The notes under the pieces were generated by a model. It was not told where the DNA came from. It worked only from the letters and a program-made list of their open reading frames with translations, and ran no database searches. The position numbers were made by a program, and so were the translations under genes. Shown one piece after another: positions 1-12,057 of a stretch of 12,057 nucleotides of DNA. Positions within the stretch are counted from its first letter, which is position 1, and each line of letters opens with the position of its first letter. Source of the stretch: a virus (taxonomy: Duplodnaviria; Heunggongvirae; Uroviricota; Caudoviricetes); IMG/VR virus record IMGVR_UViG_2558860274_000002; one strand, 5' to 3'.

Positions 1-219
1 TTACATCCACATAATTTGCTGCCCTGACGGCAACGGGTGCGGCCTTACGGCGTGGACTTCTCCCGGCTTCACGATGTATCGCTGTACCGACTCATAAGTG
101 ATGAACGTGGCGCTGCAATTCACGTTCTGGCACTGGTGATAACGCTCTTTTGTCGTGTCAGTGATATAGCGGCTTGTACGCGCATGTGCGGCATGCTGGC
201 ATAAAGGACAATGAAACAT
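1..219 (-). CDS. ogr: Ogr, P2-type late-gene transcriptional activator (Cys4 zinc finger), 72 aa
   Basis: Minus-strand ORF; translation from the internal Met (MFHCPLCQHAAHARTSRYITDTTKERYHQCQNVNC...) gives 72 aa, the length and N-terminus I recall for P2 Ogr. Has the C-x2-C...C-x4-C zinc-binding pattern. RBS-like GGAAGAGG lies 8 nt upstream of this ATG. The 93-aa extension to nt 282 is probably not translated. Confidence 0.9.
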   Translation of the reverse strand: MFHCPLCQHAAHARTSRYITDTTKERYHQCQNVNCSATFITYESVQRYIVKPGEVHAVRPHPLPSGQQIMWM

Positions 220-300
220 CGCGAGCACCTCTTCCGGTTTTGTTGATGGTGCCATTTTAGTTAATTTATCCTTATAAAACAAACAGATAAATAAAAGATA
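220..300 (-). promoter_or_regulatory. Candidate ogr promoter in the D-ogr intergenic region
   Basis: 82-nt AT-rich spacer between D stop (301) and ogr start (219). On the minus strand there is a possible -35 TTGTTT (282..277), 17-nt spacer, and -10 TAAAAT (259..254). Hexamers picked by eye only. Confidence 0.3.
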
Positions 301-1464
301 TCACTCATCATCTTCTGTTTCGTACTCCACATCAGAAAGCCTTACCTCAAGTTCTAAGGACGTCGTGAAGCCGCTATTATTCAGAAAATGTGTCACCTTA
401 GTGATTGTCCAGTCCTGCTCGTCTATGACGCGCTTAAAGCCTGATACTTTGACCGGCGTTTCCGTGTAAATATCTGCCCGACCAGTAGCCAGACTGATGG
501 AGAACTCCGCAACGCCCCGTTGCAGCTTATCCCACTTCGCCTGAGCGGCGCGCATGGCCTGCGCTTTCGTGGCATATACCGTGGTCAGGGCAAAAACGTT
601 GTCAGCCTCACCTGCCATGTATTCACCTTCGCGCGCTTCCGGTACTTTTGGCGCTTTCTTCTGCGTGACTGGTTTCGCTTTCGGGTGTTCCAGTGCGCGC
701 AGGTGTTTCTCTTTCTTTTTGCGTTTCAGTTTTACCTTCTGCTTTTGCGGCTTCGGGTCTTTGGTGTGTAACCACTTTGCCGTTACGCCGGTGTAAGCTC
801 CACGGTCAGCAATCGCAAAATGATGACGGTCGCCGTCGCTGCGGGTGATGGTAATCTGCGGGATTTTTTTACCACTGGCCGTCACCCCCTGCCCCGCTTT
901 GAGAAACAACAGTTTTCCCATTTTTACAGAGACCTCACCGCCGTTGCGTTCTGCAAGACGGGTCAGGAATTTCGCATCAGACTCCTGCGACTGGTCGATG
1001 TGCGGGATTTTAATTCCGGCCAGTGACGGAGCGACACTGGCTTCCAGTCTGTTACGGGAGGCTATCGCCTCAACAATCGCACCGAGCGTGGTGTCATGCC
1101 AGGAGCCTTCACGGCGGGAATTGAGCGTCCCGCGGAAATCTGCACTCCGGGCGCGGATGGTAACCACATCCGGCGCGCCCCGGTGTTCAACCTCATCAAC
1201 GGTAAATTTCCCTTTGCATACCAGGGCAAAACCTTTCCAGCCGATATACACCGTCAGGACAGCGCCACGAACCGGCAGCCCGACCTGCCCGTCGGCATCG
1301 TTCAGTTCAATATCAAGCTGGTCAGCCTCAAAGCCCCGGTTATCCGTCAGGGTCATGCTCATCAGACGGTCGCTGATATTGCCGGTAATATCCCTGCTGT
1401 CGAGCATCAGCATGTAATCCGGTGTCAGCGTACTGCCTGCATCAAATGTCAGCGCATCCAGCAT
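301..1464 (-). CDS. D: Tail protein gpD (P2 late gene D family), 387 aa
   Basis: Minus-strand ORF; start at the internal Met (MLDALTFDAGSTLTPDYMLMLDSRDITG...) gives 387 aa, the length I recall for P2 gpD. Contains the lysine-rich stretch KDPKPQKQKVKLKRKKKEKH. G-rich RBS-like run directly upstream of the ATG at 1464. Immediately followed by ogr, as in P2. Confidence 0.9.
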   Translation of the reverse strand: MLDALTFDAGSTLTPDYMLMLDSRDITGNISDRLMSMTLTDNRGFEADQLDIELNDADGQVGLPVRGAVLTVYIGWKGFALVCKGKFTVDEVEHRGAPDVVTIRARSADFRGTLNSRREGSWHDTTLGAIVEAIASRNRLEASVAPSLAGIKIPHIDQSQESDAKFLTRLAERNGGEVSVKMGKLLFLKAGQGVTASGKKIPQITITRSDGDRHHFAIADRGAYTGVTAKWLHTKDPKPQKQKVKLKRKKKEKHLRALEHPKAKPVTQKKAPKVPEAREGEYMAGEADNVFALTTVYATKAQAMRAAQAKWDKLQRGVAEFSISLATGRADIYTETPVKVSGFKRVIDEQDWTITKVTHFLNNSGFTTSLELEVRLSDVEYETEDDE

Positions 1465-1489
1465 TATCCCGCCCCCGTCATACCCGTGA

Positions 1490-1759
1490 ATGAAAACCGC
1501 AATGGTGCTCAAGGCAAAAGACGTTATTCGCCGTGGCTGTCTGGAATATGACGTCAGCGCCACCGACATCACCAGCTCGTTTATGGCTATCCGCAAGACC
1601 ATGACCAGCAGCGGACGCAGCGCCACCTATGAGGCCAGCCGCAGCGAGGAAGCCAGCCACGCCGACCTCGCCTGGGCGACCATGCACGCCCTGTTAAATG
1701 AGCCACTCACCGCCGGTATCAGCACCCCGCTGACATCCACCATTCTGGAGTTTTACTGA
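1490..1759 (+). pseudogene. Probable 3' remnant of terminase ATPase gene P (truncated, 89 codons)
   Basis: ORF directly upstream of Q on the same strand, with its TGA stop (1757-1759) overlapping the Q ATG (1759-1761) in an ATGA arrangement, as expected for P-Q coupling. The frame is closed by a TGA at 1487-1489, so at most 89 codons remain versus roughly 590 expected for P. Identity as P is inferred from position only; I cannot recall the P C-terminal sequence. Confidence 0.4.
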
Positions 1760-2793
1760 TGAGCAAGAAAAAAGGGAAAACACCGCAACCTGCGGCAAAA
1801 AAAATGACCGCCAGCGCCCCGAAAATGGAGGCATTCACCTTTGGTGAGCCGGTGCCGGTGCTCGACCGCCGTGACATTCTGGATTACGTCGAATGTATCA
1901 GTAACGGCAGATGGTATGAGCCGCCGGTCAGCTTTACCGGTCTGGCAAAAAGCCTGCGTGCTGCCGTGCATCACAGCTCACCGATTTACGTCAAACGCAA
2001 TATTCTGGCTTCAACGTTTATTCCGCATCCGTGGCTTTCCCAGCAGGATTTCAGCCGCTTTGTGCTGGATTTTCTGGTGTTCGGCAATGCGTTTCTGGAA
2101 AAGCGTTACAGTACCACCGGTAAGGTCATCAGACTGGAAACCTCACCGGCAAAATATACCCGCCGTGGTGTGGAAGAGGATGTTTACTGGTGGGTGCCGT
2201 CCTTCAACGAGCCGACAGCCTTCGCGCCCGGCTCCGTGTTTCACCTGCTGGAGCCGGATATTAATCAGGAGCTGTACGGTCTGCCGGAATATCTCAGCGC
2301 CCTTAATTCTGCCTGGCTGAATGAGTCGGCCACGCTGTTCCGCCGCAAGTATTACGAAAATGGCGCACATGCCGGATACATCATGTACGTCACTGATGCC
2401 GTGCAGGATCGCAACGATATCGAAATGCTACGCGAAAACATGGTTAAGTCGAAAGGCCGCAATAACTTTAAAAATCTGTTTCTCTATGCCCCACAGGGGA
2501 AAGCCGACGGCATTAAAATTATCCCCCTCAGTGAAGTGGCGACGAAGGACGATTTTTTTAATATCAAAAAAGCCAGCGCCGCTGACCTGCTGGACGCGCA
2601 CCGCATCCCCTTTCAGTTGATGGGTGGCAAGCCGGAGAACGTCGGGTCGCTGGGTGATATAGAGAAAGTGGCAAAGGTCTTTGTCCGCAATGAGCTTATC
2701 CCGTTACAGGACAGGATCCGCGAGATAAACGGCTGGCTCGGTCAGGAGGTCATCCGCTTTAAAAACTACTCACTGGACACTGACAACGGCTGA
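1759..2793 (+). CDS. Q: Portal (capsid vertex) protein gpQ, 344 aa
   Basis: 344-aa ORF, the length I recall for P2 gpQ, transcribed toward the cos site as in P2. Start ATG overlaps the upstream ORF stop. Followed by a strong intrinsic terminator. Confidence 0.9.
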   Translation: MSKKKGKTPQPAAKKMTASAPKMEAFTFGEPVPVLDRRDILDYVECISNGRWYEPPVSFTGLAKSLRAAVHHSSPIYVKRNILASTFIPHPWLSQQDFSRFVLDFLVFGNAFLEKRYSTTGKVIRLETSPAKYTRRGVEEDVYWWVPSFNEPTAFAPGSVFHLLEPDINQELYGLPEYLSALNSAWLNESATLFRRKYYENGAHAGYIMYVTDAVQDRNDIEMLRENMVKSKGRNNFKNLFLYAPQGKADGIKIIPLSEVATKDDFFNIKKASAADLLDAHRIPFQLMGGKPENVGSLGDIEKVAKVFVRNELIPLQDRIREINGWLGQEVIRFKNYSLDTDNG

Positions 2794-2798
2794 ACATC

Positions 2799-2820
2799 GC
2801 CGCCTGTGGGCGGCTTTTTT
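2799..2820 (+). terminator. Rho-independent terminator downstream of Q
   Basis: GCCGCC (2799-2804), loop TGTG, GGCGGC (2809-2814), then a run of six T (2815-2820), starting 6 nt after the Q stop codon. Confidence 0.65.
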
Positions 2821-2962
2821 ACACCCCGCCATCACGCCCTCACACGCTCACCACCGCACAAAACAGCCCGCATACACACCAACGCCCCGGCGAACAATCT
2901 AAACGCCATCACAACGCGCTCAGACGCTGAAAAAATAAAATCAGCACCACCGCCAGCGCGCA

Positions 2963-2981
2963 GTGCTTTCCCCACCTCGCC
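2963..2981 (-). other. cos site: 19-nt P2/P4-type cohesive-end sequence (terminase cleavage site)
   Basis: Minus strand reads GGCGAGGTGGGGAAAGCAC, one mismatch from the P2/P4 cohesive end as I recall it (GGCGAGGCGGGGAAAGCAC). The flanking C/A-rich sequence 2821-2962 also resembles my recollection of the P2/P4 left-end sequence. Position between Q and the right-end genes is as expected. Confidence 0.7.
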
Positions 2982-3004
2982 CGCCCGCTTCGTGGGGCGG
3001 TTTT
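2981..3004 (+). terminator. Terminator-like GC hairpin abutting cos
   Basis: CCGCCC (2981-2986), 8-nt loop, GGGCGG (2995-3000), followed by TTTT (3001-3004). Function not established; may be part of the terminase recognition region instead. Confidence 0.3.
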
Positions 3005-3138
3005 AATGCAGGTGTAAATTCAGTCTAAATACATACCTGTCGGGTCATCAAGCTTGTGCGCTCACTCAATAAAACACATGCAAATAAATGCATATAGACA
3101 TGCGCTACCAACTTGCACTAGCCATGTACATCAGGTAA

Positions 3139-4971
3139 TTAACAACGTAATTCTGTACAATTAGCCCATTCTTCAGAAAAAACAGCATCTGAAGATTTTG
3201 GCCCTGGCCTTGCTTGATTAATTGAAATTCTTACAGGCAAATTAAATGCAGAACCAAATGCAACAGCATCACCTCTTGGTAAACCTGATATTTGTTTTAA
3301 GATTTGTTCATTACCGCTTTCCATTGCATATCTGAGAGCCTGTAAATCTCTTTCATTAGTCAAACGTAACGAAAACCAGTTTGAACACATTGCCAAAACA
3401 GTAGGAGAAAGCTCTGAGGGTCGCTGAGTACTGACAATTAAAGAGCATTTGAATTTCCTACCTTCTTTAGCAAGTCGTTCATATGCTTTAATCTGTGAGT
3501 CAATTTCAGCATAAGGGTCACGCAGGTAATGATGCGCTTCTTCCAACAAAAGTACCGTAGGATACGAACGTTCCTGCCCACGTCTAAATAGTATCTCAGC
3601 AAACATCTCCAACAATGCACTAAGTAACATTGGAGCATGATCTTGTGCCAAATTTTTCATATTAACTATATGAACATTCCAATCATTTTCTTGTCCTTTT
3701 TCCTTACCAAAGAAGTAATCAACTTCATCACTCATAGCTTTATCCCAATGCGTTCCACCATCTGCTAGCTCACCCCCTCCATTTAAATTAACAATAGATT
3801 TAAATCTTATATCCTCTGCAAGTTGTTGTATGATTTTTACCAATGGCAACACGTTACTAAAACCAAACGCGTCACGTTTACTTCCATTAGAACGGTCAGC
3901 AGCTACACATCCAAATTCAGCAACCAAAGTCGCTAAACTTTTAAACGGCGGCCATACATTCGTTCTTTTAAGACGTCTACGCCTTAATAAATCCAACCAC
4001 TCAGCCAATTTACTTTGATTTGTGTCACGACAATCATCATACAAAAGAAAAGTTTCACCATCATTTTTTTCCAAGTAAATATTACGGCTTTTAAAATGAG
4101 TCCGATTAATTGCACTTAATGCATTTCTTAATGCGGGCAATTGTGTTTTATCACTTGGTCTTAATAATTTAATTAACCCAGCAAAACCTAATGCCTGATA
4201 TGGTATCTTTTTATAACAATAATACTCTTCACTATATAGCTCACCCTTTTGCTGATTTTTTTCCAAACTATCAACATTTGGGGATTCCCCTAGAATAGTG
4301 TGCTTTACATTTGGAATACCTGTAAAAGCTTGCGCGTATTCACCATTTATGTCAAAAATAACTATTCTTGAGTTAGGGTATTTTTCAGAAACCTTCCTCG
4401 TTAACAAAGCATTGAAATTTGATTTACCATATCCTGTACTACCAAGAACGGCTAAGTGTCGCGACAATAATTTATCAACACTTGCAAATATCTTAACGGT
4501 TTTAGTTCGAGAATCCACACCTAATTCAACCGCTTTTGGGAGTTCTTCTTTATCAATACTATAAATGATGTTCAAAAAATCTGAAGTCAAAGGAACAGCA
4601 GAAGAACCCAATGCAGGTAAGCGCCAATCTTCTGATATAAAAACATAACCATTTAACTCCCTTTTCACAAAGCCAATTGCATAGGCGATAATTTGTCTTA
4701 GAGGTATATCAGCTAAATCAGATGTGCCTACATTTGCCTTATGCGCTTTATCCGCTTCAACAAATGCCATATCTGTCACTCTTGCGACAACTAATATATT
4801 ACCTGCATCGAACCCAATAAGATCTCCTGGTTGCGTTACTGAGCTCACCCCCTTTCTATGCGATGCTAATCTGCCTTGCAACCCCTCATGCAGGTTTATC
4901 CTAATTCTTTCCCCTTCTAATCCTACAACGTATCCAATAGCCGAGATTTCAGTAAGTTTAAAAAGGGACAT
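3139..4971 (-). CDS. herA: HerA-like (FtsK/HerA superfamily) ATPase, 610 aa; second gene of a SIR2-HerA-type defence operon
   Basis: Walker A LAVLGSTGYGKSN, Walker B TVLLLEEAHHYL, and the HerA/FtsK-typical LIVSTQRPSEL motif. Start taken at the internal Met (MSLFKLTEIS..., ATG at 4971) because AGGAGA lies 5 nt upstream and the ATG sits just inside the 3' end of the sir2-like gene. The ORF track's start at 5022 has no such support. AT-rich relative to phage core genes. Confidence 0.85.
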   Translation of the reverse strand: MSLFKLTEISAIGYVVGLEGERIRINLHEGLQGRLASHRKGVSSVTQPGDLIGFDAGNILVVARVTDMAFVEADKAHKANVGTSDLADIPLRQIIAYAIGFVKRELNGYVFISEDWRLPALGSSAVPLTSDFLNIIYSIDKEELPKAVELGVDSRTKTVKIFASVDKLLSRHLAVLGSTGYGKSNFNALLTRKVSEKYPNSRIVIFDINGEYAQAFTGIPNVKHTILGESPNVDSLEKNQQKGELYSEEYYCYKKIPYQALGFAGLIKLLRPSDKTQLPALRNALSAINRTHFKSRNIYLEKNDGETFLLYDDCRDTNQSKLAEWLDLLRRRRLKRTNVWPPFKSLATLVAEFGCVAADRSNGSKRDAFGFSNVLPLVKIIQQLAEDIRFKSIVNLNGGGELADGGTHWDKAMSDEVDYFFGKEKGQENDWNVHIVNMKNLAQDHAPMLLSALLEMFAEILFRRGQERSYPTVLLLEEAHHYLRDPYAEIDSQIKAYERLAKEGRKFKCSLIVSTQRPSELSPTVLAMCSNWFSLRLTNERDLQALRYAMESGNEQILKQISGLPRGDAVAFGSAFNLPVRISINQARPGPKSSDAVFSEEWANCTELRC

Positions 4972-6205
4972 TACCTTCTCCTTTAGAAAGATTAGCAATT
5001 GCTTCAACCAACTCATCAACAATATTATCTCGTGGAAAGAGCACAGGGTATGGTAGATGTTCTACGAAACTATTAAAATATGCCTTGCTTCCTCCCCCAA
5101 CTACAGTTACTTGATTGAAAGCCATATTTTTTAAAGTAACAATAGCTTTCTCAGCTTCCGAACCGCCACCCTTACTTACTTTGGCAATTGCTTCTTTCAA
5201 TTCAGGATAATATATAACAACATGGAAAGATGGATTCAGTAACGCGCCTAATATTATTCTATTTATATGATAATCACCGAAACCAAACCCATTTATGAAC
5301 AACGCTGTTTGAGGTTTCGAAATAAACTCCCCAAAACGTCTAAACATCTCTCCATAAACGAAGCCGATTGTATGGCTATATTTATTCGCCCCTGGATAAA
5401 TCAAATGTTGACCGCGATAAAAGTCATCTTTATTGATTATGTCATTAATATATTCATCATATGCTTGAGATGCACTAACTTCGTTAACAGTCAAGCTATC
5501 ATTTTGATACCACGTAAGTGAGCCATGTAATTTATAGAGATACGCATGATAATGTCCGAATCTTGCTTCGCCCTTCGCATTTACATTTCTGAAAGCCAAA
5601 TCAAAATTCTGGGGATAAAACTGCCGTGTATGTAGCCCAGAAAAACCATTAAACAACTGTATTCCTAAATCTTCTGCAGCCCACTCTAAGGCCAAATCAT
5701 AATTTGTTGTGAAAATTGCCGGAGCCGACTGACCGGGCTGTCTATTTGAAATTAATTTTGAAATTAACTCTTTGTGATATTTAAACGCATCTTTTTTACC
5801 CTGATTTTTCTCTCTAAACTGCTCTCCTGTTAATAATGCAGCCTTCGTAACCTCTTTATATAATGAACTTAATATCTTCCTGAATTCCTCCTCTTCATCT
5901 TCACATCGTCTAGTTTTAGCTACAGAAAGAAATTTAGTTGCTTCATCTATCAAAAGTTCAACATTGACCAAATTGTTATCAGAATCAATTTGCGAAACCA
6001 GAAGATATTTATCAATAAGTGCTCCCAAAAGCTCAGGGTAGTTTTGCTTAAACGATTTCCATACATCTTTCATCGTTTTCCCACCACAACCGACAGAAGC
6101 ACCAGCACCTAACAGAACGCCAACATTATCTAATTGACACAAGGAATAAACGTGAGAACGAAAATCATCCTCATTTAACTTGTTACCACCTTGATAAATC
6201 GACAT
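4958..6205 (-). CDS. sir2: SIR2-like domain protein (predicted NAD+-consuming effector), about 415 aa; first gene of the SIR2-HerA-type operon
   Basis: Rossmann-type glycine motif VLLGAGASVGCGG, then IFTTNYDLALEWA (Asn/Asp motif typical of prokaryotic defence SIR2 domains) and YLYKLHGSLTW (catalytic His-Gly). About 180 aa C-terminal extension. Start placed at the second ATG (6205) because AAGGA lies 5 nt upstream; the first ATG (6211) is an alternative. AT-rich. Confidence 0.85.
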   Translation of the reverse strand: MSIYQGGNKLNEDDFRSHVYSLCQLDNVGVLLGAGASVGCGGKTMKDVWKSFKQNYPELLGALIDKYLLVSQIDSDNNLVNVELLIDEATKFLSVAKTRRCEDEEEEFRKILSSLYKEVTKAALLTGEQFREKNQGKKDAFKYHKELISKLISNRQPGQSAPAIFTTNYDLALEWAAEDLGIQLFNGFSGLHTRQFYPQNFDLAFRNVNAKGEARFGHYHAYLYKLHGSLTWYQNDSLTVNEVSASQAYDEYINDIINKDDFYRGQHLIYPGANKYSHTIGFVYGEMFRRFGEFISKPQTALFINGFGFGDYHINRIILGALLNPSFHVVIYYPELKEAIAKVSKGGGSEAEKAIVTLKNMAFNQVTVVGGGSKAYFNSFVEHLPYPVLFPRDNIVDELVEAIANLSKGEGNVPF

Positions 6206-6211
6206 AAACAT

Positions 6212-6326
6212 CCTTTTACAAATTTTAAAATTAGCTAAGTTACTACATTAAAAATCAAATATTAGAAAAAGTCATTACTCATAATCACACAATAGATTCA
6301 TAGGGTTAGCATAGTCACAATAGCTA
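6212..6326 (-). promoter_or_regulatory. Probable promoter region of the SIR2-HerA operon
   Basis: 115-nt very AT-rich spacer between the A stop and the sir2 start. One candidate on the minus strand: -35 TTGATT (6258..6253), 17-nt spacer, -10 GCTAAT (6235..6230). Not validated. Confidence 0.3.
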
Positions 6327-8450
6327 TCATTGTTGATTATCAGCATCCTGTACATTGAAAATCGCGGTTGACTCGCCAACTATGCCTGCTCGTGTGTCTC
6401 CTTTGTTTGTACATTTACGTGATGCTTCTATTTTCAATGCCAGATTAAGCACTTTCAAGACCTCCGGGTCATTCCATTCGATAACACCGTCATCTACCAG
6501 ATTAAGCACTGCTGCGGCGTGCTCAGAAGGTGTGGGAGCCGGTAACGAAGTATCGCCACAGGTGAGCTTTCCACAGTTATTGACAGGACTCCGAGGCGCG
6601 GCGATGCCGCTTTTTAAAGTCAAAGGCTCAACGACCGGAACTTTCGACACAATGCGCCAGTCCGTCGTTCTGGTGATATGAATATGACGCGCGCCGAGAT
6701 GCGGCGCGTAAATGCCGACCACTCTCTCGACTTCTTCCTCGTACTCGTTAACTTCATCCGACGGACTACGGGCGACCCTGACAGTCTGACAATCGCGCGG
6801 GACATTTGCCCCACCCTGCGCGCTGATATACAACGCAAAATCACCACTGTCTGCGGCGGCGCGTGCAGCCTCGACGCGCTCGTCAAACTCATCAGCAATG
6901 CTGACGCCGCGAGGCAATTTGCGTAGTTCACGGTAAGCCCCCATTGTCGGCAGACCAACCGTTTTAAATTGTGGGATGCGCCACGTTGACGCCCATGCGG
7001 TAACAGCCGCAGCAGTGTCTTTCAGCGGTCTGCCGGTATCGTTATCGAGCTGACCATCCAGTGCATAGCCATCGATGTTTTTTGAGATGTATTTCGCGAT
7101 ATACCCCGCAGCACCGCCCTGGTTAAGGTGTTTTGCCTGAAAACGGTTTCGCGCGGCTCCTCTTTCGTCGCCATCCTCTTTGAGCGCATAGCGACGCATG
7201 ATTTCGATAATCTGGTTACGCTGGCGTGGATTACAAAAAAGCATCATATGCCAGTGCGGCGTTCCGTCGTGGTGTGGCTCGACGACACGCAAACCGTAGA
7301 CCTGTAAATCATTATCCTTGAATGCCGTGCGCATCAGGCTCCAGATATGGCAGAGATAACGCTGCGCATCCTTTGGATTAAATGCCTCATCGTTCCAGCC
7401 GTGATTTAGCTGGACGGTTTTACTTTCGCCTTTTCCGACCTGACGTGTCGGGTGATACTTTGACGGCGCGGTAAGCGTGATAAACATCCCCACATCACCC
7501 TCTGCGGCGGCGTAACGCTCAATACCGGCAATGGTGTTCATCAGCTCCATCCGGCGAATTTCAGGATTAGAAATACTGCCCATCACCTTACTGATAAGGT
7601 CGATGCGCTCGCCGGTTTCCCTGTTTTCAAGGTCACACGATTTAAGAAATTCCAGATTTGCCTGGCGGCGTGCACGCACATCACGAATGGCATGTTTACT
7701 GGCATAAGGAGAACGGTCTTTATTCACCTCCCCGACAGCAATCAGTAACGCCTCATGCCAGCGCATACGCTGGCCTTTGAGCTGATGAGTCCACCACTCA
7801 TCGTTAAACAGACGGGCAATGGCAGAATATGCCTGCCTCGTGGTCATCTGTCCTTTACGGTATTTTTTCCAGTAAAGCGGGGAAATATTGAAAGCACGTG
7901 CAGCGCCAGCAACATGACCATAGAGGTGAGCCTGCGCCTCATCCGTAAACAGCGATTCTTTTTCGCCATGTGCATCCACCCAGGCATCGCTGAGTTCCTC
8001 ATACATCATGAAAAGCTGCGATGAGATACGGGCGGCAAACTTTTTCAGCTCCTTGTCATTCATTCCCGGCAGGCGCGCATAGTGGTCACGCTCTGCCAGA
8101 AACAGCAACGACGCGTCGGTGTTCATTTCATGGCGCTGATTCACGCGCTCAATGCGCGGCCATAAACGACGCTGAAAAGTGGATGTGAGGAAATAAAACC
8201 CGTGCACCGGGCTTTTATTGCGCCGGATGTAGTCATAGCGTGAAGTAAACAGCGAGCGCAAAAAGTAAGGCAGGCGGTTAATCGTGGATAAAACACCTTG
8301 CACCTGACGCATCTCGTCACGTGTAAGAGGTCTTTCGCGCCCGACAGCCTCGCGTGGCGCGTTCCATGCATAAGCACCGGTAAACGCCTTACCGGTGCCT
8401 GCGGCAAATGCTGACGGAGGGACAAAACGCCCGGAGGCTTTAACGGCCAT
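6327..8450 (-). CDS. A: Replication initiation endonuclease gpA (rolling-circle HUH-type initiator), 707 aa
   Basis: Start at the internal Met (MAVKASGRFVPPSAFAAG..., ATG at 8450), which I recall as the P2 gpA N-terminus. HUH-type metal-binding motif PHWHMMLF and paired-tyrosine motif GYIAKYISK typical of rolling-circle initiators. My recollection is that P2 gpA is about 761 aa, so the C-terminus here may be shorter or divergent. Confidence 0.9.
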   Translation of the reverse strand: MAVKASGRFVPPSAFAAGTGKAFTGAYAWNAPREAVGRERPLTRDEMRQVQGVLSTINRLPYFLRSLFTSRYDYIRRNKSPVHGFYFLTSTFQRRLWPRIERVNQRHEMNTDASLLFLAERDHYARLPGMNDKELKKFAARISSQLFMMYEELSDAWVDAHGEKESLFTDEAQAHLYGHVAGAARAFNISPLYWKKYRKGQMTTRQAYSAIARLFNDEWWTHQLKGQRMRWHEALLIAVGEVNKDRSPYASKHAIRDVRARRQANLEFLKSCDLENRETGERIDLISKVMGSISNPEIRRMELMNTIAGIERYAAAEGDVGMFITLTAPSKYHPTRQVGKGESKTVQLNHGWNDEAFNPKDAQRYLCHIWSLMRTAFKDNDLQVYGLRVVEPHHDGTPHWHMMLFCNPRQRNQIIEIMRRYALKEDGDERGAARNRFQAKHLNQGGAAGYIAKYISKNIDGYALDGQLDNDTGRPLKDTAAAVTAWASTWRIPQFKTVGLPTMGAYRELRKLPRGVSIADEFDERVEAARAAADSGDFALYISAQGGANVPRDCQTVRVARSPSDEVNEYEEEVERVVGIYAPHLGARHIHITRTTDWRIVSKVPVVEPLTLKSGIAAPRSPVNNCGKLTCGDTSLPAPTPSEHAAAVLNLVDDGVIEWNDPEVLKVLNLALKIEASRKCTNKGDTRAGIVGESTAIFNVQDADNQQ

Positions 8451-8715
8451 ATGAGCCAAAAGCCTCAGAACAACGCTTGCTGAGTTGCTCAACCTGCGCG
8501 TTTAAATCAGCAAAAGACTTTGCGCTTCCGGTCAGAATATCGTGATGCATCAGGCCGGAAACGAGCTGGATTAATTTCGGGTAATAACCAACCACCGCCA
8601 GCCATTCCTGACCGGCGTTTTTACCGCTTTCCGCTCTCTTTTTCTCGTGGAGAATAAACTGAAAGCTGTCACTGGTAACGACATAACGTTCGCCAATTTC
8701 AATACGAATACTCAT
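8440..8715 (-). CDS. P2 orf83-like small protein (function unknown)
   Basis: 91-aa ORF in the orf80-83 position between B and A. Its stop overlaps the A start by 11 nt and its start overlaps the upstream gene's stop. Confidence 0.6.
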   Translation of the reverse strand: MSIRIEIGERYVVTSDSFQFILHEKKRAESGKNAGQEWLAVVGYYPKLIQLVSGLMHHDILTGSAKSFADLNAQVEQLSKRCSEAFGSYGR

Positions 8716-8936
8716 GCCGTTCTCCGGTAATGCTTGTTTTTTGCTTCAAAGACTGACTGGCAGGAAACACAACGCGTGGCTGACGGATAAGCTGCACGAC
8801 GGGCAGCAGGTATTGGCGCGTCACACTCTTCGCAAACCAGCGCAGAAACACCGCTATGTTTTACCCTTGCCGCGTTAATCTGGCGCTCCAGTAATTCAGC
8901 CTGTTGTTCCTGAATAAAATCTATGTTGTCCGGCAT
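8712..8936 (-). CDS. TraR/DksA-family C4 zinc-finger protein (P2 orf82-like)
   Basis: 74-aa ORF with CEEC-x17-CVSC, the C-x2-C-x17-C-x2-C spacing typical of TraR/DksA-family proteins. Start and stop codons overlap those of both neighbours. Confidence 0.7.
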   Translation of the reverse strand: MPDNIDFIQEQQAELLERQINAARVKHSGVSALVCEECDAPIPAARRAAYPSATRCVSCQSVFEAKNKHYRRTA

Positions 8937-9241
8937 TACCAGCTCCTTTTGTCGTTCAGCTTCTTAAATTCATCAGCGCAATAGCTGGCGATTTCTGTCG
9001 TTAATTTTGTCAGTTCATCCACGGATGAAATTTGCTTATGAAATACAGCGCGTTTAACAAGTAAATTGACCACATCAGACAGGAGGTTTAATTCATTCTG
9101 ATAAATCGCGATAACAGATTCAGTTATGTCGCGTTTTTCTTTATCAAGACAAAGTTGAATAAGAGACAAATCGCCATTTTTCATAACGGCGATTTTTAAG
9201 GCGTTATTCAGTAATACAACTGAATGAGAACAGGACATCAA
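8936..9241 (-). CDS. P2 orf81-like small protein (function unknown)
   Basis: 101-aa ORF, tightly coupled to both flanking ORFs in the early operon. No recognisable motif. Confidence 0.55.
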
Positions 9242-9462
9242 AGCACCTCCCCGCGAGACAATCCGATATTGTGAAATTTTTCCGACTCCTGACTGAGCAG
9301 CTCGACTATCTCCACGCGGGATAACTCCGCCTTTGTGATATGGCGAATCATGGCGTCAAGATGAGAAGAAAAGCGCGTCGCAGCGTCGGCCTGTGCTTCG
9401 GTTCTGGCCTGTTGCAGCAGTAATGCGTATTTACCGCACTGATTTTCAGAAACTGTATGCAT
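9238..9462 (-). CDS. P2 orf80-like small protein (function unknown)
   Basis: 74-aa ORF, first gene after B in the early operon. Its stop overlaps the start of the next ORF. Confidence 0.55.
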
Positions 9463-9525
9463 GACTTTCTCCAGGCAAAAAGAAGCCCCGCACGATTAAG
9501 TGCGTTAAAAACTCTGGTTAATTAC

Positions 9526-10026
9526 TTAATGCAGATATTGCTCTGGTTTTACCGACGTCAGAATTGTCGGTGCATACTCAAACAGGCTGAATAATTCACG
9601 TAATGCACGGAATAAAGCATCACGCCAGTAACATGACTCTTCATTAATTCGCCAGTATGGCTGGTTGAATTCTTTTTCAGTCAATCCGGCATGCATAAAT
9701 AAAGTACGACGCTGACTGACTGTTAAAAAACTAATATATGCATACTCACTTGCGCCAACCTGACGGCGTTTTGAGAATGCCCCACGCAATTCATCAATTG
9801 CACAAACCAGCCGTTCACGTTCGACGTCGTTCATTTCTTCAAAACGCATCGTTGCGTGACGCTGTTTTAACTGCGCATGAAAGCAAACCGTTAACCGTTC
9901 GCGCTCCATCATCTGATTATAATAATCACATGTATCCTGCCAGCGAGGGACGGCCAGATGCTTACCAATTATCCGGCGCATAGTTGCTGGCTGTTTTTCG
10001 ACGAGATTGAGCGTCATCACTGTCAT
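9526..10026 (-). CDS. B: Replication protein gpB (helicase-loader-type early protein), 166 aa
   Basis: 166-aa ORF, the length I recall for P2 gpB, in the expected position between orf78 and orf80. Confidence 0.85.
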   Translation of the reverse strand: MTVMTLNLVEKQPATMRRIIGKHLAVPRWQDTCDYYNQMMERERLTVCFHAQLKQRHATMRFEEMNDVERERLVCAIDELRGAFSKRRQVGASEYAYISFLTVSQRRTLFMHAGLTEKEFNQPYWRINEESCYWRDALFRALRELFSLFEYAPTILTSVKPEQYLH

Positions 10027-10259
10027 TTCCAGAACCTCCGGCTTTTCAGAAAGGTCAGAGCCTTTTTTAACGGACTCTGTTTTTTGGTGCGGATAATGAT
10101 TCCCTTGCGACCCTTCCCGTGGGTGATGGTGAAGTCAATCGCCCTGGGGCTTTCGTTACGCAATAACTGAGCAATACAACGAGGCTCGTTCATCCTTTCC
10201 ACCTTAAGCCGCACGGCCATGTCTTGATTTGCTGTAACTAATGCGATTTTTCCAGTCAT
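10023..10259 (-). CDS. P2 orf78-like small protein, 78 aa
   Basis: Starting at the internal Met (MTGKIALVTANQDMAVRLK...) gives exactly 78 aa. Stop overlaps the B start (ATGA-type). The longer 96-aa form in the ORF track would overlap cox even further. Confidence 0.6.
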   Translation of the reverse strand: MTGKIALVTANQDMAVRLKVERMNEPRCIAQLLRNESPRAIDFTITHGKGRKGIIIRTKKQSPLKKALTFLKSRRFWK

Positions 10260-10575
10260 GCCATTCTGTCGGAGCTTCATCAACCAGTTGGGCTGCGTAC
10301 TTGTCCCACTCACGGCGATTAATCCATAATTCAGCTTTCCCTCTTGGTTTTAATGGGTCTGTCATGTAGAAGGCTGGCAGCTTTCCTGCTTTAGCCATTT
10401 CAGCCACCGCGCGTGGTGTCTTACCGATGTAAAGAGCAAAACCTTCTTTCGACAGCAAATCAGATGGGCGCTCTGAAATCTGAATGCTTTTACGTTTGGC
10501 TTCATTTTCGAAACTTGCCTCATCGCTAGTTGGACAAGAAATTTCTACATTTGTCGTCACTTTGCTATCCTCCAT
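10204..10575 (-). CDS. cox: Cox-like excisionase / early transcriptional repressor (winged-HTH)
   Basis: First gene of the leftward early operon, divergent from C. The segment GFALYIGKTPRAVAEMAKAGKLPAFYMTDP resembles the Cox DNA-binding region as I recall it. Start uncertain: the ATG at 10575 has no RBS, whereas an in-frame GTG at 10560 is preceded by GGAGGA with a 7-nt spacer (118 aa). The ORF is longer than P2 Cox (91 aa) and overlaps the orf78 start. Confidence 0.65.
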   Translation of the reverse strand: MEDSKVTTNVEISCPTSDEASFENEAKRKSIQISERPSDLLSKEGFALYIGKTPRAVAEMAKAGKLPAFYMTDPLKPRGKAELWINRREWDKYAAQLVDEAPTEWHDWKNRISYSKSRHGRAA

Positions 10576-10668
10576 AAGATTTGCGATTCACCAACTGGAG
10601 CCATCTAGAGCCTTTTTGAGTGAATCACAAATTGCCAAGTAGCAATATAATTGGAGATTAGCAAAATT
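10576..10668. promoter_or_regulatory. Immunity switch region (divergent Pe/Pc-type promoters and operators) between cox and C
   Basis: 93-nt spacer between the divergent cox and C starts. Contains a 7-bp inverted repeat GATTCAC (10585-10591) / GTGAATC (10620-10626) and a TATAAT hexamer (10646-10651) on the plus strand. Operator assignment not made. Confidence 0.5.
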
Positions 10669-10968
10669 ATGTCAAGTGAACAAAGTGAGAAACTAAAGCT
10701 CATCCGTGAATCCGAACGCCTTAAAACTAAGGAACTTGCTGAATTAATTGGAATTAATTACTACACATATCATGGATATGAATCAGGAAAATCAAAAATG
10801 CCTATGGAAGCAGGTATGAAGCTGTTTAAGCATCCACGCTTTCGCAAGTATCGTGACTGGTTCATGTTTGATGAAACAGATCCAGCAGCTGGACAAATAG
10901 CCCCGGCTCTCGCACACATTGGGCAAGACTCAACAACCTTGCACCACTCAGACCAGAAGACTGGCTGA
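10669..10968 (+). CDS. C: Immunity repressor C (P2 C family), 99 aa
   Basis: From the ATG at 10669 the ORF is 99 aa, the P2 C length. C-terminal DPAAGQIAPALAHIGQD...SDQKTG closely resembles the P2 C C-terminus as I recall it. The ORF track's start at 10651 is a TTG and less likely. Confidence 0.85.
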   Translation: MSSEQSEKLKLIRESERLKTKELAELIGINYYTYHGYESGKSKMPMEAGMKLFKHPRFRKYRDWFMFDETDPAAGQIAPALAHIGQDSTTLHHSDQKTG

Positions 10969-11061
10969 CGATTTATTCAGCATATGTGTGTAGTAAATGT
11001 ACGAAAGAAAATTGCATTAATTTTCAAGTAGTAGAAGTAAACAGCGTCATCGGAGGGCTTT

Positions 11062-12057
11062 ATGTCTATTAAAAAGCTCGATGATGGTCGTTATGAAGTG
11101 GACGTCAGACCGCAGGGTGCAGATGGAAAACGTATCAGGCGGAAATTTAAAACTAAAGGTGAAGCTCAGGCATTCGAACGTCATGTACTGGTTAACTACC
11201 ACAACAAAGAGTGGTTGGAGAAACCAGCCGACCGCCGAACTCTTACAGAGTTGTTAGGTAGATGGTGGATATATCACGGAAAATCACATGAGCGTGGAGA
11301 TATTGAACGGGGGCGTTTAACGACAATAATCGCCAAATTTGCAGAAATGGGAGTGTCCAGAGCTGACCAGCTAACAAAGAAAACGATAACTGATTATCGC
11401 GTTGTAATGATGAACGATGGTCTAAAACCAGCCAGCGTAAATCGACATCTGGCAATAATGAGCGGGATGTTCACCAAGTTAATTGACGCCGGTGAATACC
11501 ACTCCCACAACCCGTTCCGTGAGATTAAACGGTTACGTGAAGCTGTTACGGAAATGGCTTTTTTGTCCAGTGAAGAGATTACGCGGCTGTTATCCATGCT
11601 TGATGGTGATGAATTAAATGCAACTCTGGTCTGCCTTTCTACTGGTGGACGCTGGAGTGAAGTGTCTAATTTAAAAGCTGAACACATCATTAACCAGATG
11701 GTTACGTTTATGAAAACTAAAAACGGAAAACGCAGGACAATTCCCGTTTCGCAGGACCTGATTAAACGGATCAAGACCAAAAATTCAGGCAGGCTTTTTA
11801 ATGCCAGTTACTACAAAGTGCGTAACGCTCTCAGGGAAGTAAAACCCGATTTACCTGACGGACAAGCAGTACATGTTTTGAGGCATACATTTGCCACACA
11901 TTTTATAATGAATGGAGGTAACATAATCACATTGCAGCGCATCCTGGGTCATTCTAACATTCAGCAAACTATGACCTACGCACACTTTGCACCGGATTTC
12001 TTACAAGATGCTGTGACTCTTAACCCGGTGTCAGGAATGTCCATAATGCGTCCATAA
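11062..12057 (+). CDS. int: Tyrosine integrase (P2 Int family), 331 aa
   Basis: N-terminus MSIKKLDDGRYEVDVRPQGADGKRIRRKF resembles P2 Int. Tyrosine-recombinase motifs HVLRHTFATHF and the catalytic Tyr context QTMTYAHF are present. GGAGGG RBS 4 nt upstream. Downstream of C on the same strand, as in P2. The stop codon is the last 3 nt of the window. Confidence 0.9.
   Translation: MSIKKLDDGRYEVDVRPQGADGKRIRRKFKTKGEAQAFERHVLVNYHNKEWLEKPADRRTLTELLGRWWIYHGKSHERGDIERGRLTTIIAKFAEMGVSRADQLTKKTITDYRVVMMNDGLKPASVNRHLAIMSGMFTKLIDAGEYHSHNPFREIKRLREAVTEMAFLSSEEITRLLSMLDGDELNATLVCLSTGGRWSEVSNLKAEHIINQMVTFMKTKNGKRRTIPVSQDLIKRIKTKNSGRLFNASYYKVRNALREVKPDLPDGQAVHVLRHTFATHFIMNGGNIITLQRILGHSNIQQTMTYAHFAPDFLQDAVTLNPVSGMSIMRP

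Follow-up and report, generated by a model that had tools for sequence, protein, structure and literature searches.

Gene content of the locus

The window, i.e. the whole stretch of DNA analysed here (12,057 nucleotides; IMG/VR record IMGVR_UViG_2558860274_000002), was mapped by BLAST against P2, Pfam and PADLOC, and its plus strand reads from ogr to int. The features are the following, with the basis for each assignment in brackets.

1-219, minus strand: ogr, late-gene activator, 72 aa (Pfam Ogr_Delta)
301-1464, minus strand: D, tail/late-control protein, 387 aa, full length (Pfam Phage_GPD; BLAST to P2 22791-23954)
1489-1491, no strand: deletion junction with the 3-bp microhomology AAT, P2 1491 joined to 22764 (BLAST against P2)
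1490-1759, plus strand: P', the remaining part of the large terminase gene P, its final 89 codons (Pfam Terminase_6C, matched over profile positions 93-154 alone; BLAST to P2 1-1491)
1759-2793, plus strand: Q, portal protein, 344 aa, full length (Pfam Phage_portal)
2799-2820, plus strand: tQ, rho-independent terminator of the P-Q operon (hairpin GCCGCC-TGTG-GGCGGC and T-run)
2821-2955, minus strand: cos-Q intergenic spacer of the P2 type, G+T-rich on the P2 top strand (identity to P2 and fiAA91-ss)
2956-3010, minus strand: 55-bp cos core, with the 19-mer between a right-end flank of 29 nt and a left-end flank of 7 nt (alignment with the joined ends of P2 and P4)
2963-2981, minus strand: 19-nt cohesive-end sequence (future 5' overhang), GGCGAGGTGGGGAAAGCAC (18/19 to P2 cosL and P4 1-19)
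2981-3006, plus strand: stem-loop inside the core, 6-bp G+C stem CCGCCC/GGGCGG followed by TTTTAAT (terminator-like prediction)
3139-6211, minus strand: SIR2-HerA anti-phage system in the cos-adjacent hotspot (PADLOC; G+C 33-42%)
3139 to about 4971, minus strand: HerA (PADLOC, E=2.8e-277, full profile length)
4958-6211, minus strand: SIR2 (PADLOC, E=5e-190, full profile length)
6327-8450, minus strand: A, replication nickase, 707 aa (Pfam Phage_GPA; alignment with P2 A and the A of the relative L146)
8440-10575, minus strand: early operon with cox, an orf78-like gene, B and orf80-83 homologues (ORFs; 98.1% identity to P2 26277-30029)
8440-10193, minus strand: orf83-80 homologues, B and the orf78-like gene (ORFs, annotation of relatives)
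9526-10026, minus strand: B (annotation of relatives)
10204-10575, minus strand: cox (Pfam Phage_Cox)
10651-10968, plus strand: C-type repressor (comparison with P2 and relatives)
11062-12057, plus strand: integrase (comparison with P2 and relatives)

This gene content identifies the window as what a large deletion has left of a P2-family (Peduovirus) prophage, 12 kb in length. The original prediction had spoken of a gutted prophage, and indeed P2 coordinates 1492-22763 (21,272 bp) are absent. The N-terminal ~500 codons of P are deleted, and O, N, M, L, X, Y, K, lysABC, R, S, V, W, J, I, H, G, Z/fun, FI, FII, E, T and most of U are lost as well, which leaves neither terminase subunit. The window is thus not a complete P2-like prophage, as terminase P/M, scaffold O, capsid N and the lysis and tail genes are missing. 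A microhomology-mediated deletion of 21.3 kb would account for the loss of nearly all morphogenesis and lysis genes. The junction was not found as a contiguous sequence in the complete E. coli genomes (101-nt probe) or in IMG/VR (junction 32-mer).

The retained ORFs are all full length except for A, which has an altered C-terminus in the SIR2-HerA cargo lineage: in place of the final ~95 aa of P2 A it has ~35 unrelated residues, and the proteins of the relatives are annotated as 'missing C-terminus'. The ori nick sequence is kept, at around window position 6592. The SIR2 and HerA genes are adjacent and on the same strand, with an overlap of 14-65 nt, as expected for a system of this type. On the Q side of cos, identity to P2 is 96.6% over 1.5 kb, and the exact Q protein was found in over 21,000 sample blocks, where the matches listed are all in intact prophages. 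The immunity and integration type is unlike that of P2 (66-70% nucleotide identity), and is the same as in the E. coli A17 prophage located next to pflA.

The cohesive-end sequence and the cos core

The minus strand at 2963-2981 reads GGCGAGGTGGGGAAAGCAC, and matches the cohesive ends annotated in P2 and P4 at 18 of 19 positions. The canonical GGCGAGGCGGGGAAAGCAC occupies positions 1-19 of P2 (NC_001895), where it is annotated as cosL, the left cohesive end, and positions 1-19 of P4 (NC_001609) as well. Both the 19-mer with its single substitution inside the overhang and the canonical sequence were therefore given correctly in the original prediction. The sole difference from the canonical 19-mer is a C>T transition on the minus strand at overhang position 8, corresponding to a plus-strand A at window position 2974. 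A pattern search with GGCGAGGCGGGGAAAGCAC allowing up to 3 mismatches returned a single match in the whole window, against an average of 0.01 in shuffled sequences, i.e. a chance expectation of ~0.01 per window even at 3 mismatches.

The match extends beyond the 19-mer. With the record ends of P2 and P4 joined for comparison, the core at 2956-3010 reads TGCATTAAAACCGCCCCACGAAGCGGGCG, then the 19-mer, then TGCGCGC, and the flanks expected of a cos core, TGCATTAAAACCGCCCC..AAGCGGGCG upstream and TGCGCGC downstream, are both present. The 36 core bases flanking the 19-mer also match, apart from two loop bases that differ from P2 (GT>AC), so that with the C>T the identity to the P2 core is 52/55. 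In the passages of later papers that cite Ziermann & Calendar 1990 (PMC9594776, PMC2231350, PMC9122126), the 55-bp core is given as the only homology between P2 and P4. The conservation of each column was computed over 107 unique IMG/VR cos regions; the columns between about -35 and +26 are strongly conserved, and conservation drops sharply beyond them. The window has the consensus base at all in-core flank positions that are at least 90% conserved in this set, and its only other core departure from consensus besides the C>T is at loop position -11, a freely variable column (loop positions -12 to -10 are variable among these regions). Just outside the core, at position -34, the window shares with A17, FG92-1 and L133 an A, which is the minority base there.

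The stem of the predicted stem-loop inside the core covers the top-strand nick position, while its loop bases are the variable core positions. The folding energies of the core DNA were no better than those of shuffled sequences (z from -0.4 to +1.1 for the cos core together with the deletion hot-spot region described below), and an Rfam scan of the whole window gave no family at the gathering score.

The position of the site is also that of a P2 cos. The linear P2-like phage records (fiAA91-ss, L-413C, P24A7b, S164, HQ103 and others) start exactly at the point corresponding to window 2981, which is where cosL is annotated in fiAA91-ss, and the core lies between Q/tQ and the SIR2-HerA hotspot cargo, downstream of gene A. 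By sequence, flanks and position, 2956-3010 is a genuine P2/P4-type cos site, the cleavage of which is predicted. The type assigned by the original prediction is accordingly borne out by the alignment to P2, P4 and P2-like cos regions that it had proposed, over the full 55-bp core and not only the 19-mer.

The variant 19-mer was found at no unrelated enterobacterial position in a scan of the GTDB species representatives. The scan gave 2 matches, in an alphaproteobacterial and a bifidobacterial metagenome-assembled genome (MAG), both without cos flanks, where ~4 are expected by chance. An occurrence of the same 19-mer at unrelated chromosomal positions, which had been named as a result that would speak against cos, is thus limited to these two chance matches.

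The spacer between cos and Q

The C/A-rich flank (2821-2962) had been likened to the P2/P4 left-end packaging region, and this is right for P2 but not for P4. The plus strand of this flank is 77% C+A, and P2 20-159 is 73% G+T on the top strand; the spacer is identical to P2 at 148/169 positions (88%) and to fiAA91-ss at 166/169 (98%). The corresponding P4 flank has only ~48% identity to that of the window and no strand skew. Since the flank is unrelated to P4 and conservation across P2- and P4-like elements ends at +26, it is not a packaging region common to both. P4 is packaged by the same terminase without a P2-type spacer, which makes it unlikely that such a spacer is required for terminase recognition. 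On the Q side the spacer is bounded by tQ, homologous to P2 160-181 (annotated tQ), so the flank as originally delimited, starting at 2821, begins just past the terminator.

Distribution of the T allele

The frequency of the substitution was surveyed in complete E. coli genomes using a 33-mer across the overhang and megablast, with a 28-nt word that forces the queried allele to match, while exact patterns or short probes were used for the other collections. The canonical 33-mer was found at 2763 places in 2071 of the 5426 genomes, and the T allele at one place in one genome. IMG/VR contains at least 120 canonical sites and none with the T allele, nor with any other non-C base at overhang position 8. 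The T allele is absent from 50,697 phage records; a 40-nt probe made of the variant 19-mer and left flank matched 57 P2-like phage records, with the single C mismatch among the matches listed. No virion-derived sequence with the T allele was thus found in IMG/VR or the phage records. In JGI/ENA metagenome contigs, where the canonical allele was not counted, the T allele is present on 2.

The single E. coli genome with the T allele is S1-ZIM-01-A (NZ_CP145671.1). Its prophage is apparently complete from int to ogr, has no pseudogene flags, and carries a different cargo (a PP2C phosphatase and two kinases). A human-gut metagenome contig combines the T allele with the same SIR2-HerA cargo as the window and with P2 1-5299 undeleted. 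The T allele is found on two different Q-side haplotypes, and the nearest cargo relative of the window, FG92-1, carries C, from which it follows that the T arose repeatedly or was moved by recombination. Ten other defective P2 prophages were examined, and all ten have the canonical 19-mer. The change is therefore not general to such remnants, and could be a first decay mutation. Elsewhere in the prophage the lineages diverge by 2-4%, so the invariance of the base at overhang position 8 indicates a strong constraint.

Deletion endpoints in gene P

Searched by exact sequence, the 89-aa P' ORF is a predicted gene in 794 sample blocks, and its sequence is present on 490 contigs. Among ten diverse places listed for it, eight are defective P2-like prophages, at three chromosomal loci and with different internal deletions. 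Their right endpoint is identical in 8/8, directly before ACAC(G/A)CCGGAAATG. In P2 coordinates this common endpoint is at ~1501/1502, where there is a Tyr codon (TAC), and the junction in the window lies 11 bp downstream of it. Six left partners map to P2 2090, 5591, 11317, 12159, 18030 and 18756, and two more lie outside P2 homology; the microhomologies at these junctions are of 2-4 nt (TA, TAC, TACA, CAC). The O157:H16 98-3133 remnant has a partner at P2 22302 for the same site, and two more partners are indicated by ORFs of the same protein cluster with an N-terminal extension (ME|YTPEM and ...VIG|YTPEM). One of these junctions is seen again on one IMG/VR contig. This amounts to at least 10 independent deletions with the common gene P endpoint. 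Ascertainment through the ORF would accept endpoints across at least ~50 nt, and the single-nucleotide coincidence is therefore not explained by the search method.

The endpoint falls at the 5' boundary of the right-hand arm of a perfect 8-bp inverted repeat, CGGCGTGT-45 nt-ACACGCCG. The folding of this region was unremarkable compared with shuffles, within the range of z given above for both regions. The sequence at the fixed endpoint resembles neither the ori nick site of P2 nor attP, and no IS element or filler was found at the gene P deletion junctions.

The junction in the window is a separate event, close to this hot spot. Descent from a remnant of the O157:H16 98-3133 type was considered, as it is found at the same locus and the endpoints of the window are nested inside its own, but the two are only 96-97% identical, and direct descent is therefore not supported.

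Discussion

Effect of the substitution

Since both ends of one molecule carry the change, self-annealing and circularisation would not be affected by it. The suggestion that annealing with heterologous ends could be affected holds in so far as the mismatch is real, but the effect is small: the nearest-neighbour Tm calculated for the 19-mer duplex is 71.5 °C for the canonical pair, 65.9 °C with a T.G mismatch and 61.9 °C with a C.A mismatch, i.e. a drop of only 6-10 °C. What the substitution would do to cleavage by the terminase is a different question, on which the distribution of the allele bears. The surveys show strong purifying selection on position 8, and a harmful change would give such a pattern.

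One reading of the C>T is that it is a decay mutation, acquired after or independently of the loss of the terminase, which blocks or strongly reduces recognition or nicking by P2-type terminases, so that the site would not be packaged even with a helper. It is consistent with the invariant C at position 8 in 2763 E. coli sites, at least 120 IMG/VR sites and, among the matches listed, 57 probe-matched P2-like records. It is also in line with the four differences in 300 nt between the cos-Q region of the window and that of fiAA91-ss, three of which are transitions towards A/T, and with the C in FG92-1, the closest cargo relative, which makes the T look derived. However, the T is also present in the apparently complete prophage with another cargo and in the undeleted metagenomic prophage with the same cargo, and thus need not be a sign of decay. 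A lethal lesion would likewise be difficult to square with the two Q-side haplotypes, unless those prophages are dead too. In addition, the overhang of phage 186 differs from that of P2 at two positions and 186 can nevertheless act as a helper for P4. We consider a dead site possible, but the less probable reading.

The T allele is, by our estimate, somewhat more likely to be a tolerated polymorphism than an inactivating lesion. The modest preference for tolerance is due to the complete prophage with T and the multiple haplotypes, while the appreciable weight left to impairment is due to the extreme rarity of the allele and its absence from virion-derived sequences.

Possible packaging and mobilisation by a helper

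As both terminase subunits are lost, the cos of the window cannot act in cis. It is a relic, and could work only with the packaging machinery of another P2-like phage. It was most likely kept because the deletion is young and the site lies between Q and the defence cargo, and not by selection.

In the presence of a suitable phage, the gpM+gpP terminase would recognise cos on the closed circular genome and cut it with a 19-nt stagger, giving cohesive ends, and the end produced from the T allele, if it is cut, would begin GGCGAGGTGG. The P2 terminase prefers covalently closed circles (PMC2231350). An excised circle of the remnant, supplied with terminase and capsids by a heteroimmune P2-like phage, could in principle be cut and packaged, and the retained int, cox, A, B and ori could in principle allow excision, replication and cutting in trans (the att sites lie outside the window). 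The ~12 kb remnant would fit P4-size heads, and a trimer would fit the P2 head. When P2 and P4 infect together, P4-size capsids take up cos plasmids of 5-10 kb (PMC2231350), a P2 head can accommodate three P4 genomes, at low efficiency (PMC6893505), and a helper-dependent packaging and transduction assay with cos plasmids has been described (PMC2231350, PMC9594776).

Mobilisation by a helper is plausible, although unlikely to be efficient. It requires excision, which is poor in P2-type prophages, and in this lineage the C-terminus of the A protein is not the normal one. There is also no sign of horizontal spread, since the junction is absent from the other genomes searched.

These considerations weigh on a stronger proposal, according to which the remnant is a functional, satellite-like and helper-dependent 'mini-P2' that has kept integration, immunity, replication, ogr, cos and the defence cargo, with cos under selection for mobilisation by P2-like helpers. 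The full-length retained ORFs, a size near the 11.6 kb of P4, the packaging of 5-10 kb cos plasmids by P2+P4 and the many independent gutted P2 prophages that retain P'-Q-cos-cargo with a canonical cos would all fit with it. Still, the remnant has no anti-repressor and no gene for capsid-size redirection or helper exploitation, its junction is in no other genome searched, it is absent from virome and phage collections, and young remnants retain cos without any need of selection. We regard this proposal as improbable. Its extension to a whole class is slightly more so: the gutted P2 prophages (int-C-cox-B-A-cargo-cos-Q-P' and ogr) would then be recurrent P4-sized helper-dependent elements produced by site-preferring deletions in gene P and mobilised via cos, proto-satellites spreading defence cargos, with a T allele that is tolerated or alters specificity.

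Two further explanations concern the observation itself. An error of sequencing or assembly behind the source record, the real site being canonical, would fit a difference of a single base, but is very improbable given that the same T occurs in three independent assemblies and that the surrounding sequence has no signs of low quality and intact ORFs. A chance resemblance of the 19-mer in unrelated DNA is ruled out by the core flanks and the synteny with Q and the hotspot. The reading that we hold with good confidence is that of a P2-family cos relic in a deletion remnant, with a T allele that is more likely tolerated and for which packaging in trans is conceivable.

What is described here is a known kind of site, an ordinary P2 cos, with a new and rare allele in one more cryptic P2 prophage. 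On its own, a textbook cos site in a defective prophage is of little importance. The C>T allele is however a natural probe of the sequence freedom of the P2 terminase inside the overhang, as position 8 does not vary in the ~2800 prophage sites or in the P2-like phage records that were checked, and yet the T is found in an apparently complete prophage. If such remnants were packaged in trans, defence cargos could travel in this way, and the remnants would be a plausible origin for the evolution of satellites. The hot spot of deletion endpoints in gene P is a more unusual observation than the cos site itself.

Comparison with known systems

Compared with P2 (NC_001895; cosL 1-19, cosR 33575-33593), the window has the same 19-mer (18/19), core (52/55), tQ and G+T-rich spacer (88%), and cos has the same place next to Q. 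It differs by the C>T at position 8, the two loop bases (GT>AC) and the deletion of the cognate terminase genes, and to the right of cos it carries SIR2-HerA, transcribed towards cos, in place of the old/tin of P2. The closest left-end haplotype is that of fiAA91-ss (KF322032), which is identical at 296/300 positions from the first overhang base into Q and has cosL in the same place, while it carries the canonical C and a complete phage genome.

With P4 (NC_001609), the window shares the 19-mer (18/19) and the conserved core from about -29 to +26, but outside the core the two are unrelated, the flank having ~48% identity and no skew in P4, and the window has no P4 genes. The P4-type genes considered were the alpha primase-helicase, sid/psu/delta, epsilon and a P4 integrase next to cos. 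All of the ORFs tested were P2 homologues or SIR2/HerA, and the rest of the window aligns to P2 or P2-like prophages. As the P4 genes are absent, the window is not a P4-like satellite.

Other cryptic P2 remnants (FG92-1, O157:H16 98-3133 and L144-L153) also have large internal deletions and have kept ogr, and most of those examined have P'-Q-cos-cargo as well. The remnants examined keep a canonical cos, however, and the P2 1491|22764 junction is unique to the window among the sequences searched. In E. coli K-12, ogrK/yegZ is a cryptic P2 remnant from which cos has been lost altogether. The cargo corresponds to the cos-adjacent defence hotspot of P2, in which variable anti-phage cargo is found between A and cos and for which systems of the SIR2/HerA type are listed (Rousset et al. 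2022, PMC9122126). It departs from the hotspot as described there in that the insertion boundary of this cargo lineage lies inside gene A, the last ~95 codons of which it replaces.

Decay of the SIR2-HerA cargo lineage

The cos-adjacent hotspot of the window is filled by a SIR2-HerA anti-phage system (3139-6211, minus strand), which has a low G+C content (33-42%) and is transcribed towards cos. Another version of this system, just 72-76% identical, occupies the equivalent place in three other P2 remnants (L146, L147 and L149). Nearly the same cargo as that of the window, with 5 mismatches in 3.6 kb, is carried by another defective prophage, in E. coli FG92-1 (NZ_CP142677.1, 1724317-1737383), the cos of which is canonical. 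Its deletions are unlike those of the window: an N-terminally truncated P is joined to a piece of the tail-sheath gene, and a shortened tape-measure gene lies next to ogr. Because the two prophages share an almost identical cargo while differing in their deletions, the comparison shows that this cargo lineage has decayed repeatedly and independently.

In the same lineage, the hotspot boundary falls within gene A (window 6327-6460, minus strand), where about 35 unrelated residues stand in for the last ~95 residues of P2 gpA, giving a protein of 707 aa compared with 761. This A retains its HUH/Tyr motifs, and the ori nick sequence is still there at ~6592. RefSeq gives the same gene A the flag "missing C-terminus" in prophages including that of E. 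coli A17, where P, O and N are still present in the examined stretch.

A common deletion endpoint in gene P

Among defective P2-like prophages, which occupy three or more chromosomal loci, the same right endpoint recurs in at least 10 distinct internal deletions. It is located directly 5' of ACAC(G/A)CCGGAAATG, at a Tyr codon (TAC) of gpP, corresponding to P2 coordinate ~1501/1502 and lying 11 bp upstream of the window's own junction (1489-1491). The junction was located in the comparison loci as follows:

~9989/9990 of each locus, L144-L148 and L151-L153, endpoint junction
~12538, L075, endpoint junction
~9509, L156 (E. coli O157:H16 98-3133), endpoint junction

The left partners vary (P2 2090, 5591, 11317, 12159, 18030, 18756 and 22302, plus others), with microhomology of 2-4 nt at the deletions, and P'-Q-cos-cargo, where P' is the C-terminal part of P, is retained in all of these prophages. 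Immediately next to the endpoint is the right arm of an inverted repeat of 8 bp. The common endpoint resembles neither ori nor attP, and no IS elements were found at junctions of deletions ending in gene P.

The complete prophage with the T-allele cos

The sole complete E. coli genome carrying the T allele of cos (C>T at overhang position 8) is that of S1-ZIM-01-A, in which the site lies in a P2-like prophage that is complete and occupies the yegR/yegQ locus:

NZ_CP145671.1, 5173911-5177482 plus 1-30130, prophage (loci L126, L154 and L155)
5924-5942, cos

Its hotspot cargo consists of a PP2C phosphatase and two Ser/Thr kinases; the Z/fun position is taken by a gene with an FRG domain.

Mosaicism, cos-core stem-loop and comparison with P2 and P4

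The integrase and repressor of the window (10651-12057) have only 66-70% nucleotide identity to those of P2, and identity to their counterparts in the A17 prophage is 99.9%. The integration site of this type lies between pflB and pflA (A17 and 98-3133). The nearest relative differs by segment (fiAA91-ss on the Q side, FG92-1 for the cargo and A17 for int/C), which is typical P2 mosaicism.

The cos core contains a conserved stem-loop, CCGCCC...GGGCGG followed by TTTTAAT (window 2981-3006, plus strand). It scores as intrinsic-terminator-like on the Q-coding strand, making it a second such site about 160 nt after tQ, the terminator following Q, and is also conserved in P4. Bounded by the ogr and int stop codons (1-12057), the remnant measures 12.06 kb, which is about one third of the P2 genome and close to the 11.6-kb genome of the satellite P4.
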